Source: Candidatus Zambryskibacteria bacterium RIFCSPHIGHO2_01_FULL_46_25
Lineage (GTDB): Bacteria; Patescibacteriota; Minisyncoccia; Phycocordibacterales; Zambryskibacteraceae
DNA length: 64,000 nt
Reading direction: 5' to 3'
Assembly (NCBI GenBank): GCA_001825155.1
Contig: MHVH01000006.1
Coordinates: 4,939-68,938 of the forward strand
Shown here one piece after another: positions 36,736-46,725 of the stretch. The position numbers and the translations under genes are program-made. The notes beneath the pieces are model-generated. The model had not been told where the DNA came from. It worked only from the letters and a program-made list of their open reading frames with translations, and did not search any database. How positions within the stretch are numbered: the first letter of the stretch is position 1; every line of letters begins with the position of its first letter.

Positions 36736-37392
36736 TTAAATCCCCGTTTCTTCCAACTCTTCCAATAAAATTTTTCTTTCAATAATACCCCGCAAACTCT
36801 CTTCAGCAAATTTTTTATACTCCGCTCTATTTTTAAACTGCTCCAAAATCCTTTCTTTAGCGCAAATCGGTTCGGGGAAATTTTTATTCATATACTCTTC
36901 CCAGCTTGTTTGACAAATTGTGGACGCTCGGCTTCCACGACTATGAGCTAGGTGATTTAAATTTATATATGCGCTCAAATGAAGCAAATATTCATTTGTG
37001 TCTATAAGTTTTGCCTTAAATTTCCCCTGGAATAAAGAACCGGATCTTTTATATTTCGCGTTGAAATACTTACTAAATCCGGTGCCTAAGCGATGCATAA
37101 ACTTTTCAATCCCCTTTTCTGATACTTGTTCAAGCATAAAATGAAAGTGATTCGGATTGATGCCGTAAACAGTGAACTTTACCAAGGGTTTTCCCTCAGT
37201 TGTGGAAGCTCGGCTTCCACGTTTGCGTTCCCTATTCTCGTAGATGCTTCCTATGGGCTTTATCGTGTTGAACTCTCTCATACTTTTTATGAATCGTTCT
37301 AAATCCTTATGTTCCAAAAGAATTTTTCTTCCGTCAACTCCACGGTTGTAAATGTGGTAATACTCTTTTTCTACAAATGGGATATCACGCAT
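36736..37392 (-). CDS. IS200/Y1 HUH transposase-like protein, probable REP-associated tyrosine transposase (RAYT)
   Basis: YHIYNRG N-terminus, HUH motif NHFHFML, C-terminal LSAYINLNHL tyrosine region; contains two in-frame copies of the palindrome. Confidence 0.55.
   Translation of the reverse strand: MRDIPFVEKEYYHIYNRGVDGRKILLEHKDLERFIKSMREFNTIKPIGSIYENRERKRGSRASTTEGKPLVKFTVYGINPNHFHFMLEQVSEKGIEKFMHRLGTGFSKYFNAKYKRSGSLFQGKFKAKLIDTNEYLLHLSAYINLNHLAHSRGSRASTICQTSWEEYMNKNFPEPICAKERILEQFKNRAEYKKFAEESLRGIIERKILLEELEETGI
36917..36940. repeat. REP-like palindrome copy 2 (inside the transposase ORF, translated SRGSRASTI)
   Basis: aattgtggacgctcggcttccacg. Confidence 0.85.
37198..37222. repeat. REP-like palindrome copy 3 (inside the transposase ORF, translated KRGSRASTT)
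   Basis: cagttgtggaagctcggcttccacgt; perfect 8-bp stem gtggaagc/gcttccac with 3-nt loop. Confidence 0.85.
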
Positions 37393-39450: not shown

Positions 39451-40443
39451 ATGAAAAAACGTGCTCCCATGGCTCCGTTGAGCCATTTCGTCATATTAGG
39501 GCTTGTTCTCTCACCTCTCCTGGTTCTCGCCAGGAGCCAGGCTGGGCAAATATTACGCATGCCGGAAAGCAAAGAGTCGGGTAATTCCCAAACTATGAAT
39601 CTTCTTGAAGGCTATCTTAATTGGAACCCCGCCGGCATCGGCGGGCCTATTCTCGCGATAGTCGACAGCACTGCTCTCGAGGCGGGCAGAATAGGCGGCG
39701 AAACATTCGTAGAGCAAGGTGGGTTAGGCACCGGCCAGATTAGCATCTATGTCGTACAAGCGGACGATACTCTAAGCGAGATTGCCGAGACGCACAGGGT
39801 TTCCACAAACACTATAATTTGGGCCAATGATTTAAGGGGAAGTACCATTAAAGAAGGTCAAGAACTGCTTATTTTGCCTATCTCCGGCGTGCGCCATATT
39901 ATCAAGTCTGGTGACACACTACAGTCAATTGCGAAAAGTTATAAAGCCGAACTTGACGACATTCTTTCATACAACGACCTTTCAACCGACTCCAAAATTA
40001 AGGTGGGCGATGCGATTATCATTCCCAATGGAGTAATCAGCGCGTCAGCCAACATCAAGTCCTCTTTAACGCAAACCTCCTCAAGCCTGCCGACTTACTC
40101 CGGCTATTACTTGCGTCCGATAACTGGCGGTAGGAAAAGCCAGGGCATTCACGGCTATAACGGTGTTGATTTAGCCGCTCCGGCGGGCACTCCTATCATG
40201 GCTTCCGCGGACGGCACGGTCATCATAGCAAGAACAAGCGGCTACAACGGAGGCTACGGACTCTATGTCGTAATCAAGCACTCAAACGGCACTCAGACGC
40301 TCTACGCGCATATGTCGAAAGTAAATGTCGTGGTGGGCCAGCAGGTTTCCCAGGGTGAGATTATCGGCGCTGTCGGCAACACCGGCCACTCCACCGGTCC
40401 CCACGTCCACTTCGAAATCAGAGGAGCAAAGAATCCATTTTAG
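39451..40443 (+). CDS. LysM-domain M23-family peptidoglycan metallopeptidase
   Basis: Start set at MKKRAPMA (signal peptide); two LysM repeats; M23 motifs HGYNGVDLAAPAGTPI and GNTGHSTGPHVHFEI. Confidence 0.8.
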   Translation: MKKRAPMAPLSHFVILGLVLSPLLVLARSQAGQILRMPESKESGNSQTMNLLEGYLNWNPAGIGGPILAIVDSTALEAGRIGGETFVEQGGLGTGQISIYVVQADDTLSEIAETHRVSTNTIIWANDLRGSTIKEGQELLILPISGVRHIIKSGDTLQSIAKSYKAELDDILSYNDLSTDSKIKVGDAIIIPNGVISASANIKSSLTQTSSSLPTYSGYYLRPITGGRKSQGIHGYNGVDLAAPAGTPIMASADGTVIIARTSGYNGGYGLYVVIKHSNGTQTLYAHMSKVNVVVGQQVSQGEIIGAVGNTGHSTGPHVHFEIRGAKNPF

Positions 40444-40461
40444 AAATTTAAATTAAAATAT

Positions 40462-40773
40462 ATGGATCGAAAATTAGCTCAAGAAATTATTGATGAGCTG
40501 GCTCCATATAGACGAAATACTGGAGCGGTTTGGGGAATAGAGCATGATTTTGTTGATAAAATTCCAAACTCACGTATTGGGGTTTCTTTTTATGAAATGG
40601 ATCACGAACAAATCGAAGATTTTTTAAATGCTGATGATAAGGAAAAATTTGATATGGCTTATTGGGCAGAAAGATATAGAGAAAAAGTAGCATCAAGACA
40701 TGGATTTTATATAGGGATTTCTGTAGGAATAATAATCACTATTATATTTTTCTCCGTTGTTTTAAGTGGTTGA
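40462..40773 (+). CDS. small hypothetical protein with C-terminal TM helix
   Basis: ORF track; AT-rich. Confidence 0.35.
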   Translation: MDRKLAQEIIDELAPYRRNTGAVWGIEHDFVDKIPNSRIGVSFYEMDHEQIEDFLNADDKEKFDMAYWAERYREKVASRHGFYIGISVGIIITIIFFSVVLSG

Positions 40774-40784
40774 TTCAGTTTTAA

Positions 40785-41258
40785 TTATTTTTTATGTTTC
40801 TTCTGCCAGCTTCCTTTACTTGTATCATAATGAGTTCCTCGTACAGCAATCACGAAAAAGATTTTTTCTTTTTCCAGTAGACTAAAAAACATCCTTACAT
40901 CTTGTTTCTTTTTCTCATGAATAAACTTAATTTCATGGACCTCTTCGTCCTCGTATAGACCTCTGTATAAATCCTTATACTCCCCATCTCTCTTGATTGG
41001 TTTGATTTCGGTATGGCTAGTATTAGACAAAAAATTTGTTTTATTTGTAAAGTGCACGCCAACATCCCTCATAACATGAAGAGCTGCTTGAGAATTTTCT
41101 AACGTCATTCCATCGATTTGGCATTCTTTCTTTTTATATTTGATAAAAGACATATAGAAAGGGGAGGCTTCTGGTGCCTCATCTTCTTGTGGTAGAGTCG
41201 TGGCTGTTGGAGGGATTGGACCAGCTTGAACTGGCTCTGCACTATCTGTGTCTGACAT
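40785..41258 (-). CDS. candidate toxin partner of the Panacea antitoxin (no recognised family)
   Basis: 157 aa; overlaps the upstream Panacea gene by 17 nt, same strand; AT-rich. Confidence 0.35.
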   Translation of the reverse strand: MSDTDSAEPVQAGPIPPTATTLPQEDEAPEASPFYMSFIKYKKKECQIDGMTLENSQAALHVMRDVGVHFTNKTNFLSNTSHTEIKPIKRDGEYKDLYRGLYEDEEVHEIKFIHEKKKQDVRMFFSLLEKEKIFFVIAVRGTHYDTSKGSWQKKHKK

Positions 41259-41751
41259 TGTCAGCCGAGAGTTTCAATTTTGAATAAAAATCAAACATAT
41301 CCTTAATAGATATTTCCTTGTCAGTACCAATGTGGGCTTCTATTCCTACTCGGGCTTTCTTCCACGGATCTTCAGAGTGAGTTAGGTATTCTAAATATTG
41401 TCCGTCGTATGCACCATATACATTCCAAACATTCTCCATGTGCTCTATCTTATCGGACGAAATTGAATTGAATGTTCCTCCGTCTATCTTTTTGGTAATT
41501 GGCTCAAATCCGAATCTTTTGTATTCTAAATATATTTCTCTAACAGCTGGACCGTGTATCCAAGCTTCAATTTTTTCATCGAACAACTTTTCTTTTTTAA
41601 GGGCTACAAACCAGGCTTGAGCATAATAGATCAGCTTTTGGAGCTTTTTGTTGGTTATGGGCTTGCCATCAACCTGGGCTTTCCATATGAAGTACTCGGC
41701 AACTTGCTGAGCACTTAACAGTTTAGGTCGAGCCATTAGATAAAGTGCCAA
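41242..41751 (-). CDS. Panacea (DUF4065, SocA-like) antitoxin-domain protein
   Basis: KLQKLIYYAQAWFVALKKEKLFDEKIEAWIHGPAVREIY matches the Panacea core. Confidence 0.6.
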   Translation of the reverse strand: MALYLMARPKLLSAQQVAEYFIWKAQVDGKPITNKKLQKLIYYAQAWFVALKKEKLFDEKIEAWIHGPAVREIYLEYKRFGFEPITKKIDGGTFNSISSDKIEHMENVWNVYGAYDGQYLEYLTHSEDPWKKARVGIEAHIGTDKEISIKDMFDFYSKLKLSADNVRHR

Positions 41752-41865
41752 TACTATTATTACACTTCTAGGAAAAGCAGCAATAGCCTAATCCACAACT
41801 TTCTGCAATTTGTGCATAATAAGACTTAAAATAAGGGGAATTCTTACTGTTTACATGTTCGATTT

Positions 41866-43395
41866 CTATATATCAAATTTCTTCGGCCTGTACTCTACTG
41901 CTTCGAGGATGTGGGGACCCTTGACTATATCCGAACCCTCTAGGTCGGCGATGGTGCGGGCCACCTTTATCATCCGGTGATACACGCGGGGCGAGAAGCC
42001 AAGGCGTTCAGCCGCCATGTTGAGCATTTTCTCCGCTTCTTTCTCAAGCTTCACGTGCAAGACCAATTCTTTCGCGCCCATCTCGCCATTCTTTGTGATT
42101 TTCTTACCGGAGAATCTTTCTAACTGAATTTCCCTCGCTCGAGAAACTTTTTTTCTAAATATTTCACTTTCTTCCCCCGTCCTACCCTCACTCCCCAATT
42201 CGTGCGGTAGAATTCGGTCCACTTCGAGCCAGATGTCTATCCTGTCTATGATGGGCCCGGACATTTTTCTTCTGTATCTCTGGAGAGCGGAAGGCGTGCA
42301 GATGCATTGCTTGCCGCGGAAGCCGTAATTGCCGCAAGGGCATGGATTCATAGCGGCAATGAGGAGAACATTGGCCGGGAAATGCGCCGTGCCCTTCGCC
42401 CGTGCAACGGATATCACCTTGTCTTCCAAAGGCTGTCTCAAGCTTTCTATCACTCGCCTCTCGAATTCCGGGAATTCATCCATGAAGAGCACTCCATGAT
42501 GCGCCAGGGTAATCTCTCCGGGGCGTGGCGTGGCTCCGCCGCCAATGAGTGAAACGTATGAGGCGGTATGGTGTGGCGCCCGGAATGGCGGATTAGTAAT
42601 GAATGTTTCCTGCAACGTGCCTGCAACCGAGTGGATGCCTGTCGCCTCCAGGGCTTCTTCAAAATTGAGCTTGGGTAATATTCCGGCAAACGCTTTGGCA
42701 AGCATGGTCTTGCCCGTGCCCGGAGGGCCGTACATAGCCACGTTATGCCCGCCGGCGGCGGCGATGAGGAGACCCCTCTTCGCTCTCTCCTGCCCTCTCA
42801 CGTCGGCAAAGTCGGTGGGGGTAATGACTAGTTCTTCGTCGAGTTTGGTAAGTTCTTCGGCATCAAGCGCTTCTTCTTCGGTAAGATGTTCTATAACTTG
42901 TTTCAAACTAGAGATGGCATACACGAGGATACCTTCGATAAGCGCCGCTTCGCGCGCATTCTCGACTGGCACAAAAATTTCTTTGAATCCTTTTTCTTTC
43001 GCAAATCTCGCAATAGGAAGAATGCCACGCACCGGGCGAACTTTCCCATCGAGGGAAAGTTCGCCCAAGAAAATTTTCTTCTCCGGGTCGAACTCTATTT
43101 CATCATTTGCCAATAGATACGATAGCGCGATAGCGAGGTCGAAAGATGCGCCCGCTTTCTCGAGAGAAGCGGGCGCGAGCGATATGACAATCTTGTGATT
43201 ATTGTTCTTCGGCGATTTAAAACCGGAATTTTTTATCGCGGCGCTTACTCTGTCTCTCGCTTCTTCAACCGCTTTGTCCGGCAAGCCGACGATGGCAAAA
43301 GCAAAAAGGCTACCTCTCGTAATATCTGTTTCAACGGAAATCGGCGTGACATTAAGCAAACTCGTCTGCGCGGAATAAACTTTCGAGAAACTCAT
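41866..43395 (-). CDS. YifB/ComM-family Mg-chelatase-like AAA+ ATPase
   Basis: Start set at MSFSKVYSA; N-terminal Lon-like VGLPD; Walker A GPPGTGKTML; C-terminal ChlI-type motifs. Confidence 0.8.
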   Translation of the reverse strand: MSFSKVYSAQTSLLNVTPISVETDITRGSLFAFAIVGLPDKAVEEARDRVSAAIKNSGFKSPKNNNHKIVISLAPASLEKAGASFDLAIALSYLLANDEIEFDPEKKIFLGELSLDGKVRPVRGILPIARFAKEKGFKEIFVPVENAREAALIEGILVYAISSLKQVIEHLTEEEALDAEELTKLDEELVITPTDFADVRGQERAKRGLLIAAAGGHNVAMYGPPGTGKTMLAKAFAGILPKLNFEEALEATGIHSVAGTLQETFITNPPFRAPHHTASYVSLIGGGATPRPGEITLAHHGVLFMDEFPEFERRVIESLRQPLEDKVISVARAKGTAHFPANVLLIAAMNPCPCGNYGFRGKQCICTPSALQRYRRKMSGPIIDRIDIWLEVDRILPHELGSEGRTGEESEIFRKKVSRAREIQLERFSGKKITKNGEMGAKELVLHVKLEKEAEKMLNMAAERLGFSPRVYHRMIKVARTIADLEGSDIVKGPHILEAVEYRPKKFDI

Positions 43396-43615: not shown

Positions 43616-43897
43616 ATGCGTAAGAAAAAGCAAAAACAAGTATCTCGTAATAACGGCTTATTGGCTTTAAAAACCGATGAAGCTTATATCACCTATGACA
43701 AAGAAGCTGATGCCGCCTATTTCTCCGTGAAAAAAGGCAAAGTGGCAAAAACTATTCAGTTGGACGAATGGCTTCTGGCTGACGTAAACAAGAAAGGGGC
43801 GCTTCTTGGTATTGAAATGCTTTTTGTTTCTCTTCGCGCTCCTAAACATTCAATAATTTCTTCTCTAAAGACTGGAAGAATTCCTGTTTTTGCTTAG
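43616..43897 (+). CDS. DUF2283-family small protein
   Basis: YDKEADAAYFSV...GALLGIEML pattern typical of DUF2283. Confidence 0.45.
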   Translation: MRKKKQKQVSRNNGLLALKTDEAYITYDKEADAAYFSVKKGKVAKTIQLDEWLLADVNKKGALLGIEMLFVSLRAPKHSIISSLKTGRIPVFA

Positions 43898-46103: not shown

Positions 46104-46343
46104 ATGACACAAAAAGTAATAAAAGTAGGCGACTCCGTTGCCGTAGTCATCCCCAAGAAATCCCTTAAGGAGCTTGGTTTGAAGCTGGGAGACGAGGTCG
46201 TCGTTGACGTCAATCCCAAGAGTCAGTCAATGTCCATCCGTTCCCTCGCGAAGCCTTCTAAGCATCAGGAGAGGATTGCCGAGCTTGCGTACAACTTCAT
46301 TAATCGTTATCGCAAGGACCTTGAAGCTCTTGCCAATAAATAA
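46104..46343 (+). CDS. AbrB/MazE/SpoVT-family antitoxin (Phd-like partner of Doc)
   Basis: MTQKVIKVGDSVAVVIPKKSLKELGLKLGDEVVVDV swapped-hairpin motif. Confidence 0.65.
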   Translation: MTQKVIKVGDSVAVVIPKKSLKELGLKLGDEVVVDVNPKSQSMSIRSLAKPSKHQERIAELAYNFINRYRKDLEALANK

Positions 46344-46344
46344 C

Positions 46345-46725
46345 GTGGAGTATTTAGACGCGAAAGATATTCTCCGCATTCACTCAATGGCGGTGGATGA
46401 AACTGGTGGGTCTCATGGCGTGCGGGACATGCATACTGTTTTAAGTTTAGGAAATTCGCCCAAACAGGCGGTTTTTGGAGAAGAGCTTTATCCTACCGTC
46501 TTTCTAAAGGCATCTGTCTATGCCCGTGAAATTATTATGGGGCACCCCTTTCTGGATGGGAACAAAAGGACCGCCATGGTCTGTGCTTCGGTATTTCTTG
46601 AAGCGAATAATTACTTTTCAAATCTCAAAAAAGGTCAGATTGAAAAATTTGCTCTCAAAATCGTGAAAGAGCGGTTAGAATTGAATGACATCGCCAAGTG
46701 GTTTGAAAAACACTTCAATAATTAA
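46345..46725 (+). CDS. Doc/Fic-family toxin
   Basis: Doc active-site motif HPFLDGNKRTA; GTG start one nt after the antitoxin stop. Confidence 0.7.
   Translation: MEYLDAKDILRIHSMAVDETGGSHGVRDMHTVLSLGNSPKQAVFGEELYPTVFLKASVYAREIIMGHPFLDGNKRTAMVCASVFLEANNYFSNLKKGQIEKFALKIVKERLELNDIAKWFEKHFNN

Follow-up and report, generated by a model that had tools for sequence, protein, structure and literature searches.

Panacea-domain antitoxins (PanA) have been described in pairs with MqsR-like, Fic/Doc, toxSAS, PemK and ParE toxins (Kurata et al. 2022, PMC8832971), and the dataset of that study holds PanA-paired toxin clusters with HHpred matches to HigB-2, YoeB, ParE and RelE. In cluster T14 (HHpred 99.7%), which includes Candidatus Saccharimonas, the PanA proteins carry a helix-turn-helix (HTH) domain; cluster T28 (HHpred 89%) is proteobacterial and has standalone PanA proteins, denoted 'noNTD' (PMC8832971). 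Here we analysed a 64,000-nt stretch of Candidatus Zambryskibacteria bacterium RIFCSPHIGHO2_01_FULL_46_25 (contig MHVH01000006.1, positions 4,939 to 68,938; 'the window' below), where two minus-strand genes, termed panA and panT, very probably form a PanAT module with a putative RelE-fold toxin. The fuller statement, which adds an RNase mechanism for PanT, is somewhat probable. Because pairings of Panacea with RelE-fold toxins have been published (PMC8832971), the module belongs to a known kind.

RelE/ParE is among the commonest toxin folds in the NetFlax study (PMC10440598), which also reports neutralisation by standalone Panacea antitoxins through direct binding of the toxin, in one case via the toxin's unstructured N-terminus. 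As for the host lineage, ultra-small Patescibacteria genomes have been hypothesised to largely lack toxin-antitoxin systems (PMC12455944).

The panA and panT gene pair

An earlier note on this DNA reported two open reading frames (ORFs) on the same strand, and both are present where it placed them, at 41242..41751 (169 amino acids, aa) and 40785..41258 (157 aa), sharing 17 nt (41242-41258). The longer form of the first ORF starts from TTG at 41751. Public gene calls and homologue N-termini agree on ATG at 41736, which is the likelier panA start and is used in the following list.

41242..41736, minus strand: panA, standalone Panacea-domain antitoxin, 164 aa, from ATG 41736
40785..41258, minus strand: panT, putative toxin of 157 aa with an ATG start, from an unannotated sequence family with a predicted RelE/ParE fold
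41242..41258, minus strand: overlap of the panA stop and the panT start, 17 nt, which suggests translational coupling of the two genes
41737..41865, minus strand: presumed promoter region upstream of panA, 129 bp

The Panacea core that had been read from motifs in the first ORF is confirmed, as the quoted motifs are there and PF13274 (SocA_Panacea) is covered over its full length (1-113/113, E 1.6e-18), with 68.1 bits for a Pfam cut-off of 25.7. The product also matches phrog_1281 (E 5.7e-48). A scan of panA for further domains detected no HTH, PAD1 or zinc-binding domain, and because Panacea is the sole domain found, we call this PanA 'standalone'. It shares 42-56% identity with the PanAs encoded next to homologous toxins, and none of the solved structures is sequence-related to its PanA subfamily.

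We considered that the locus could be a type VI system resembling SocAB, in which PanA would serve as an adaptor delivering PanT to ClpXP and would not inhibit it by binding. The Panacea domain family takes its name from SocA, and panA partially matches the NCBIfam model SocA_antitoxin (NF047745, E 3.6e-17). That match, however, reaches 62.6 bits, far under the equivalog cut-off of 190; PanT is not SocB-like and is predicted to have a RelE fold instead; and the PanA proteins that have been tested act directly, complexing and neutralising their toxins (PMC8832971, PMC10440598). A SocAB-like mechanism is thus very improbable.

PanT itself has the same sequence as 'hypothetical protein UX71_C0002G0220' from Parcubacteria group bacterium GW2011_GWA1_47_10. 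The window matches contig LCNF01000002.1 (GCA_001003005.1), and the locus recurs in several groundwater metagenome assemblies. It has no significant match in Pfam, NCBIfam, PADLOC, PHROGs or PDB sequences. A word-indexed homology search returned PanT alone, and its rerun with an alignment returned only seven proteins. Exhaustive HMMER (phmmer) searching of 1.84 billion representatives, of clusters at 50% identity, yielded 98 cluster representatives at E ≤ 1e-3, 40 at ≤ 1e-10 and 6 at ≤ 1e-30, with matches covering residues ~10-150. These 98 homologues, together with the near-invariant residues described below, indicate from comparative sequence data that the panT ORF is a real gene, far beyond chance.

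Seven PanT homologues were located by exact sequence. One lies on a 503-nt contig without neighbours, which leaves six informative ones, 27-48% identical to PanT. Whether homologues stand beside antitoxin-like genes had been set beforehand as a test, and a PF13274 gene lies directly upstream on the same strand in 6/6 loci. Their wider neighbourhoods are unrelated, featuring a serine recombinase, a phage integrase, a restriction-modification (R-M) system, or a ribonucleotide reductase with a Mu-like transposase. The partner PanAs are more conserved than the toxins, with mutual identities of 42-56% vs 26-47%.

The pairing was then counted in species-level genomes, where a search with a PanA alignment gave at least 201 relatives; the counts come from the best 80 loci. 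A PanT-family ORF follows immediately downstream in 72/80 (E 1e-15 to 1e-57), so the conserved partnership claimed for the pair stands. A sister toxin family is present in seven of the remaining eight, bringing the loci with one toxin superfamily to 79/80. This PanA subfamily is therefore tied strictly to a single toxin superfamily and is not promiscuous. The pair thus shows both a Panacea domain well above the Pfam threshold and the same two-gene architecture across unrelated genomes, as a PanAT system should.

The relationship between the sister family and PanT is supported by hhalign (probability 93.6%, E 2e-7, 133 columns) and by direct cross-hits between their HMMs. Its members stand behind more distant PanAs, in phyla outside the Candidate Phyla Radiation (CPR), and share the motifs 'FSFKHLD', 'WQF', 'GRVHG' and 'VWLDPxHxLY'; no Pfam model matches them. 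They were found downstream of PanA at the following places.

L083, 998-1456: sister toxin
L085, 2108-2698: sister toxin
L086, 3429-3899: sister toxin
L090, 3422-3892: sister toxin
L092, 3437-3877: sister toxin
L093, 3434-3934: sister toxin
L094, 3453-4115: sister toxin

Incidentally, a plasmid copy of the sister toxin in Parabacteroides distasonis (NZ_OY725750.1) adjoins a gene annotated as a SocA-domain antitoxin.

By label, 54 of the 72 PanT-positive loci are from Patescibacteria/CPR, 11 are from other phyla and 7 are unlabelled. The eleven include Gammaproteobacteria, Alphaproteobacteria, Chlamydiae, Ignavibacteria/Melioribacteraceae, Bacteroidota and Thermodesulfobacteriota. Spacing between panA and panT is operon-like, as 45 of 71 pairs overlap, 23 have gaps of 0-30 nt and three have larger ones. 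Both genes are intact in 66 of the 72 loci, and the remainder are two in which the toxin is frameshifted and PanA intact, two that are divergent but apparently intact, and two in which both genes are degraded or cut by the contig end. No clear case of an intact toxin with a broken antitoxin was seen among the 72. This bias of decay has the direction expected for a toxin, although the cases are too few to count for much. The decayed copies are as follows.

L019, 678-1126: frameshifted toxin, intact PanA
L041, 3459-3907: frameshifted toxin, intact PanA
L064, 3208-3760: both genes truncated

One small metagenome-assembled genome, Candidatus Zambryskiibacteriota nzgw494, has two copies of the module on separate contigs (L016 and L023).

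Predicted fold and candidate active site of PanT

When PanT was modelled by AlphaFold from its single sequence, the result was uninformative (pLDDT 49.9). AlphaFold2 with an 82-sequence alignment, on the other hand, gave a model with pLDDT 87.7 and pTM 0.76, exceeding pLDDT 90 for residues ~30-140 and standing at 85 by residues 141-150. The order of elements is strand 35-37, helix 53-69, helix 73-79, strand 83-88, helix 92-98, and strands 107-114, 119-128 and 133-140. The model thus contains the N-terminal strand, the helical hairpin and the antiparallel sheet of three to four strands that define the RelE/ParE fold. In Foldseek searches, RelE, HigB2 and YoeB rank first, with probability up to 0.99 and a target-normalised TM-score of ~0.6. 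Judged by this model, PanT is a divergent member of a known fold, RelE/ParE, within a sequence family that has no profile model.

The earlier note could not assign the 157-aa protein to any toxin family and saw in it a candidate for a new toxin domain, asking for structure prediction. Its first statement holds at the sequence level, where no family matches, but not at the level of fold, since the confident model has the RelE/ParE fold, which no other fold exceeds in frequency among type II toxins. The new-domain proposal fails for the same reason, and because such Panacea partners are already catalogued. What speaks for a structurally new domain is the lack of matches in Pfam, NCBIfam, PADLOC and PDB sequences and the uninformative single-sequence model; set against the alignment-based model, it is hardly credible. 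A search of viral folds in BFVD with the PanT model gave no significant match.

The same fold is shared by ParE-like poisons of DNA gyrase, and PanT could be one of these, with a target other than RNA. In the fold searches, however, RNase-type members outscore ParE, and we consider a gyrase poison unlikely.

Residue conservation was assessed in the 82-sequence alignment and in a 154-member set, which consists of that alignment plus 72 genome-derived members. In the former, Y94 and H143 never vary, and conservation is 90% or more for S37, Y41, C46, G67, E109, R122 and F124. In the latter, Y94 is found in 153/153, H143 in 150/150, R122 in 150/151, E109 in 148/152, Y41 in 145/152 and C46 in 144/153. 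The parts of PanT and its candidate active-site codons map as follows.

41163..41258, minus strand: PanT residues 1-32, acidic Pro/Thr/Glu-rich N-terminal extension, pLDDT 60-70
40815..41162, minus strand: PanT residues 33-148, basic RelE-like core as delimited by the model and fold searches
40830..40979, minus strand: span of four near-invariant candidate active-site codons, chosen by conservation
40977-40979, minus strand: candidate active-site codon of Y94
40932-40934, minus strand: candidate active-site codon of E109
40893-40895, minus strand: candidate active-site codon of R122
40830-40832, minus strand: candidate active-site codon of H143

A Pro/Thr/Glu-rich N-terminus with a ~110-aa domain after it had been described for this protein, and this layout agrees with the model, in which the domain is folded. 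The N-terminal extension is low in complexity yet not random in sequence, as the 'IP' at positions 15-16 (I15 69%, P16 71%) and E30 (81%) are conserved among the 154 members, which supports the annotated panT start. Its net charge is -7 in PanT residues 1-32, with a family median of -4 and 80% of members negative. The core is basic by comparison, having a pI of 9.3 in PanT (residues 33-157) and a family median of 8.8, which fits the expectation for an RNA- or ribosome-binding toxin.

The catalytic residues of such toxins, located on strands 2 and 3 and in the C-terminal segment, are E46, R65 and H83 in YoeB, and K52, K54, R61, R81 and Y87 in RelE. The positions of E109, R122, H143 and Y94 in the PanT model are plausible for a comparable site. 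R122 of PanT is on the second strand of the C-terminal sheet, and its 'R-hydrophobic-aromatic' context resembles 'RLVY' of YoeB and 'YRLVY' of RelE. H143 follows the last strand in the context 'IAVRGTHY', which recalls the C-terminal 'IAACRYHY' of YoeB. E109 is on the first strand of the C-terminal three-stranded sheet in the model. In weak hhalign alignments, R122 falls onto R61 of RelE and R65 of YoeB, and 'HEIKF' falls onto 'YKIKL' of RelE, which contains K52 and K54. The sister family keeps the Arg and His corresponding to R122 and H143, and has an invariant Gln for E109.

We propose that the locus is a type II toxin-antitoxin operon of the PanAT class, gained horizontally, whose toxin PanT may be an endoribonuclease of the RelE/YoeB/HigB type, most likely cutting mRNA on the ribosome. 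R122, on strand 3, and H143 would act as the catalytic Arg and the YoeB-like C-terminal His, with E109, Y94 or both completing the site. PanA would neutralise PanT by direct binding, by analogy with other standalone Panacea antitoxins. Because neutralisation via a toxin's N-terminus has been published (PMC10440598), the conserved acidic extension is a candidate handle that PanA might grip, speculative as this is. The role of the module could be like that of other chromosomal toxin-antitoxin modules, namely addiction or stabilisation, or abortive defence against phages.

Alternatively, PanT could employ its RelE scaffold for another, or even a new, activity, for instance cutting tRNA or rRNA independently of the ribosome, or acting on some other substrate, and the module could serve mainly in phage-triggered abortive infection with Panacea as the sensor. 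The residue set is odd for a RelE relative, with an invariant Y94 and conserved C46 and Y41; the strand-helix insert at 83-98 and the conserved acidic extension are additional to the fold; PanT has no sequence link to known families; a sensory role of Panacea has been proposed by Ernits et al. (PMC10440598); and R-M and mobile-element genes adjoin the module in other loci. However, nothing points positively to another substrate, neither the panA nor the panT product matches PADLOC models, and tblastn of PanT against phage and plasmid collections found no family member. We hold this alternative to be unlikely, if somewhat less so than a gyrase poison.

Several observations weigh against the proposal of a PanAT module with a RelE-type RNase. 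First, the fold similarity is moderate, as Foldseek E-values for PanT are only 0.02-0.1. Second, sequence profiles do not connect PanT to the fold. When the member families ParE_toxin (PF05016), YoeB (PF06769), Gp49/HigB (PF05973), YafQ and others were considered, no PanT member among 156 reached any Pfam threshold, and scanning the 156 singly gave noise and two isolated marginal matches to Gp49 (HigB-like; E 0.0066 and 0.0042). Likewise, hhalign of PanT against RelE and YoeB sequences and a YoeB profile gave non-significant probabilities of 0.7-3%, where the YoeB profile was too shallow because every listed match was at least 82% identical to the query, and the PanT family profile found only spurious spectrin and uL22 matches among PDB sequences. 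Third, the placement of E109, R122, H143 and Y94 in a common cleft is inferred from predicted secondary structure and the weak alignments. Fourth, the invariant Gln of the sister family weakens a general-base role for E109. Fifth, no promoter or operator has been identified, since a simple sigma-70 scan upstream of panA did not find a minus-strand site, and a scan for promoters and terminators gave nothing above chance expectation on the coding strand. An extended -10-like TGtAATAAT was spotted by eye ~20 nt ahead of the panA ATG.

The insertion site and its surroundings

Acquisition had been suggested for the module from its AT-richness. The GC content of the module is indeed 0.378 vs 0.469 for the window, and it is 0.33-0.39 over 40500-41750 vs 0.45-0.56 in the flanks. 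A more direct test is given by four metagenomic loci of sister species (L095-L098) that extend past ComM, where ComM is 76-82% identical to that of the window and the gene order NYN-orf288-DksA-ComM-M23 (M23 convergent) is the same. Downstream of M23, UvrD follows in L095, L096 and L098 and KsgA in L096 and L098, while L097 ends within M23. The stop codons of ComM and M23 are 1-43 nt apart in these four loci vs 1,422 bp here. Moreover, panA, panT and the accompanying orf103 are absent from all 80 ComM loci examined. The empty site in sister species thus shows acquisition directly, and makes the AT-rich segment a lineage-specific insertion.

40444..41865: lineage-specific insertion with orf103, panT and panA, 1,422 bp between the stops of the convergent ComM and M23/LysM peptidase genes
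40462..40773, plus strand: orf103, orphan ORF of 103 aa, hydrophobic helix at its C-terminus, convergent with panT at a distance of 11 nt

No integrase, tRNA, direct repeat or RNA family (Rfam) was found to mark the ends of the insertion. With no Rfam family or tRNA nearby, nothing hints at an RNA antitoxin or at integration targeted to a tRNA.

An inverted repeat of 13 nt is found on either side of the insertion (40396-40408 and 41907-41919), where about one such repeat is expected by chance. It was considered as the end of a mobile element and rejected, for the two arms are inside the coding ends of ComM and M23 and both encode Gly-Pro-His. Because the Gly-Pro-His of M23 is kept in 3/4 of the insertion-free sister loci, where ComM ends in Asn/Thr-His, we take the repeat as a coding coincidence. 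As a third component of the module, orf103 was also rejected; it matches no family and has no homologue in 86 other PanAT loci, and so is merely co-inserted.

The surroundings show other variable spots. An ORF of the IS200-like Y1 transposase family (36736-37392, minus strand; PF01797, E 2.9e-6) lies in a patch of low GC (~0.38) between UvrD and KsgA, and as these two genes are adjacent in L096 and L098, it is another lineage-specific insertion. Between DksA and ComM there is a DUF2283 ORF (43616-43897, plus strand; PF10049, E 5.5e-11). This slot varies, as DksA and ComM abut in L098 and are separated by different content in L095-L097. Finally, a second toxin-antitoxin-like pair is located ~5 kb off on the plus strand, where a 79-aa AbrB/MazE-like protein (46104-46343) is followed by a Fic/Doc-domain protein (~46345-46725), according to PF02661 and a weak PF04014 match in public gene calls.

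Significance and comparison with known systems

What is new here is a fold for an unannotated family, the size of that family and its bias to Patescibacteria, a PanA subfamily without promiscuity, the atypical features of the toxin, and a clean insertion site. Neither the type of toxin nor the principle is new. That PanT and the sister family form a distinct, undescribed branch of RelE/ParE, with a catalytic set of its own (Tyr94, His143, Arg122, Glu109/Gln and Cys46) and an acidic-tail handle for a dedicated, non-promiscuous Panacea, is a tentative idea that we think has a minor chance of being right. The substrate or the trigger of PanT might differ from those of classical RelE/YoeB.

A family of at least 98 cluster representatives, publicly annotated as 'hypothetical', thereby receives a fold and a testable mechanism. 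One Panacea subfamily is bound to a single toxin superfamily, in contrast to the hyperpromiscuous reputation of the domain. The exact empty site documents a recent gain of a toxin-antitoxin module in an ultra-small Patescibacteria genome, and the module may be among the most common toxin-antitoxin or defence systems in genome-reduced Patescibacteria.

With SocAB of Caulobacter (type VI), the module has the Panacea/SocA domain of the antitoxin in common. The likeness does not go further, as the SocA_antitoxin score stays at 62.6 bits vs the equivalog cut-off of 190, PanT is unrelated to SocB and has no NCBIfam match, and a protease-adaptor mechanism is not expected for this module.

Unlike the YoeB (Txe/YoeB, PF06769) and RelE endonucleases, PanT has no significant sequence or profile similarity to that group. 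It is ~60 residues longer, with the N-terminal extension and the extra strand-helix insert; neither its invariant Tyr94 nor its conserved Cys46 has a known counterpart; and its partner is Panacea, not YefM, RelB or HigA. As for the ParE gyrase poisons (PF05016), their structural scores are below those of RNase members, and the PanT family, unlike them, has conserved residues that look catalytic.

The closest likeness is to the PanAT systems (PMC8832971, PMC10440598). As in these, the Panacea antitoxin comes first and the toxin follows immediately downstream with an overlap, the predicted toxin fold is of the RelE/ParE type, and the modules occur patchily and in association with mobile elements; the standalone PanA is shared with T28. 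The family may coincide with T14, T28 or another cluster of the dataset, although T14 PanAs carry an HTH domain and T28 is proteobacterial, whereas the PanT family has a standalone PanA and is mainly from Patescibacteria. Compared with the catalogued PanAT toxins, the PanT family is longer (~140-175 aa) and has an acidic N-terminal extension, and its PanA is not promiscuous.

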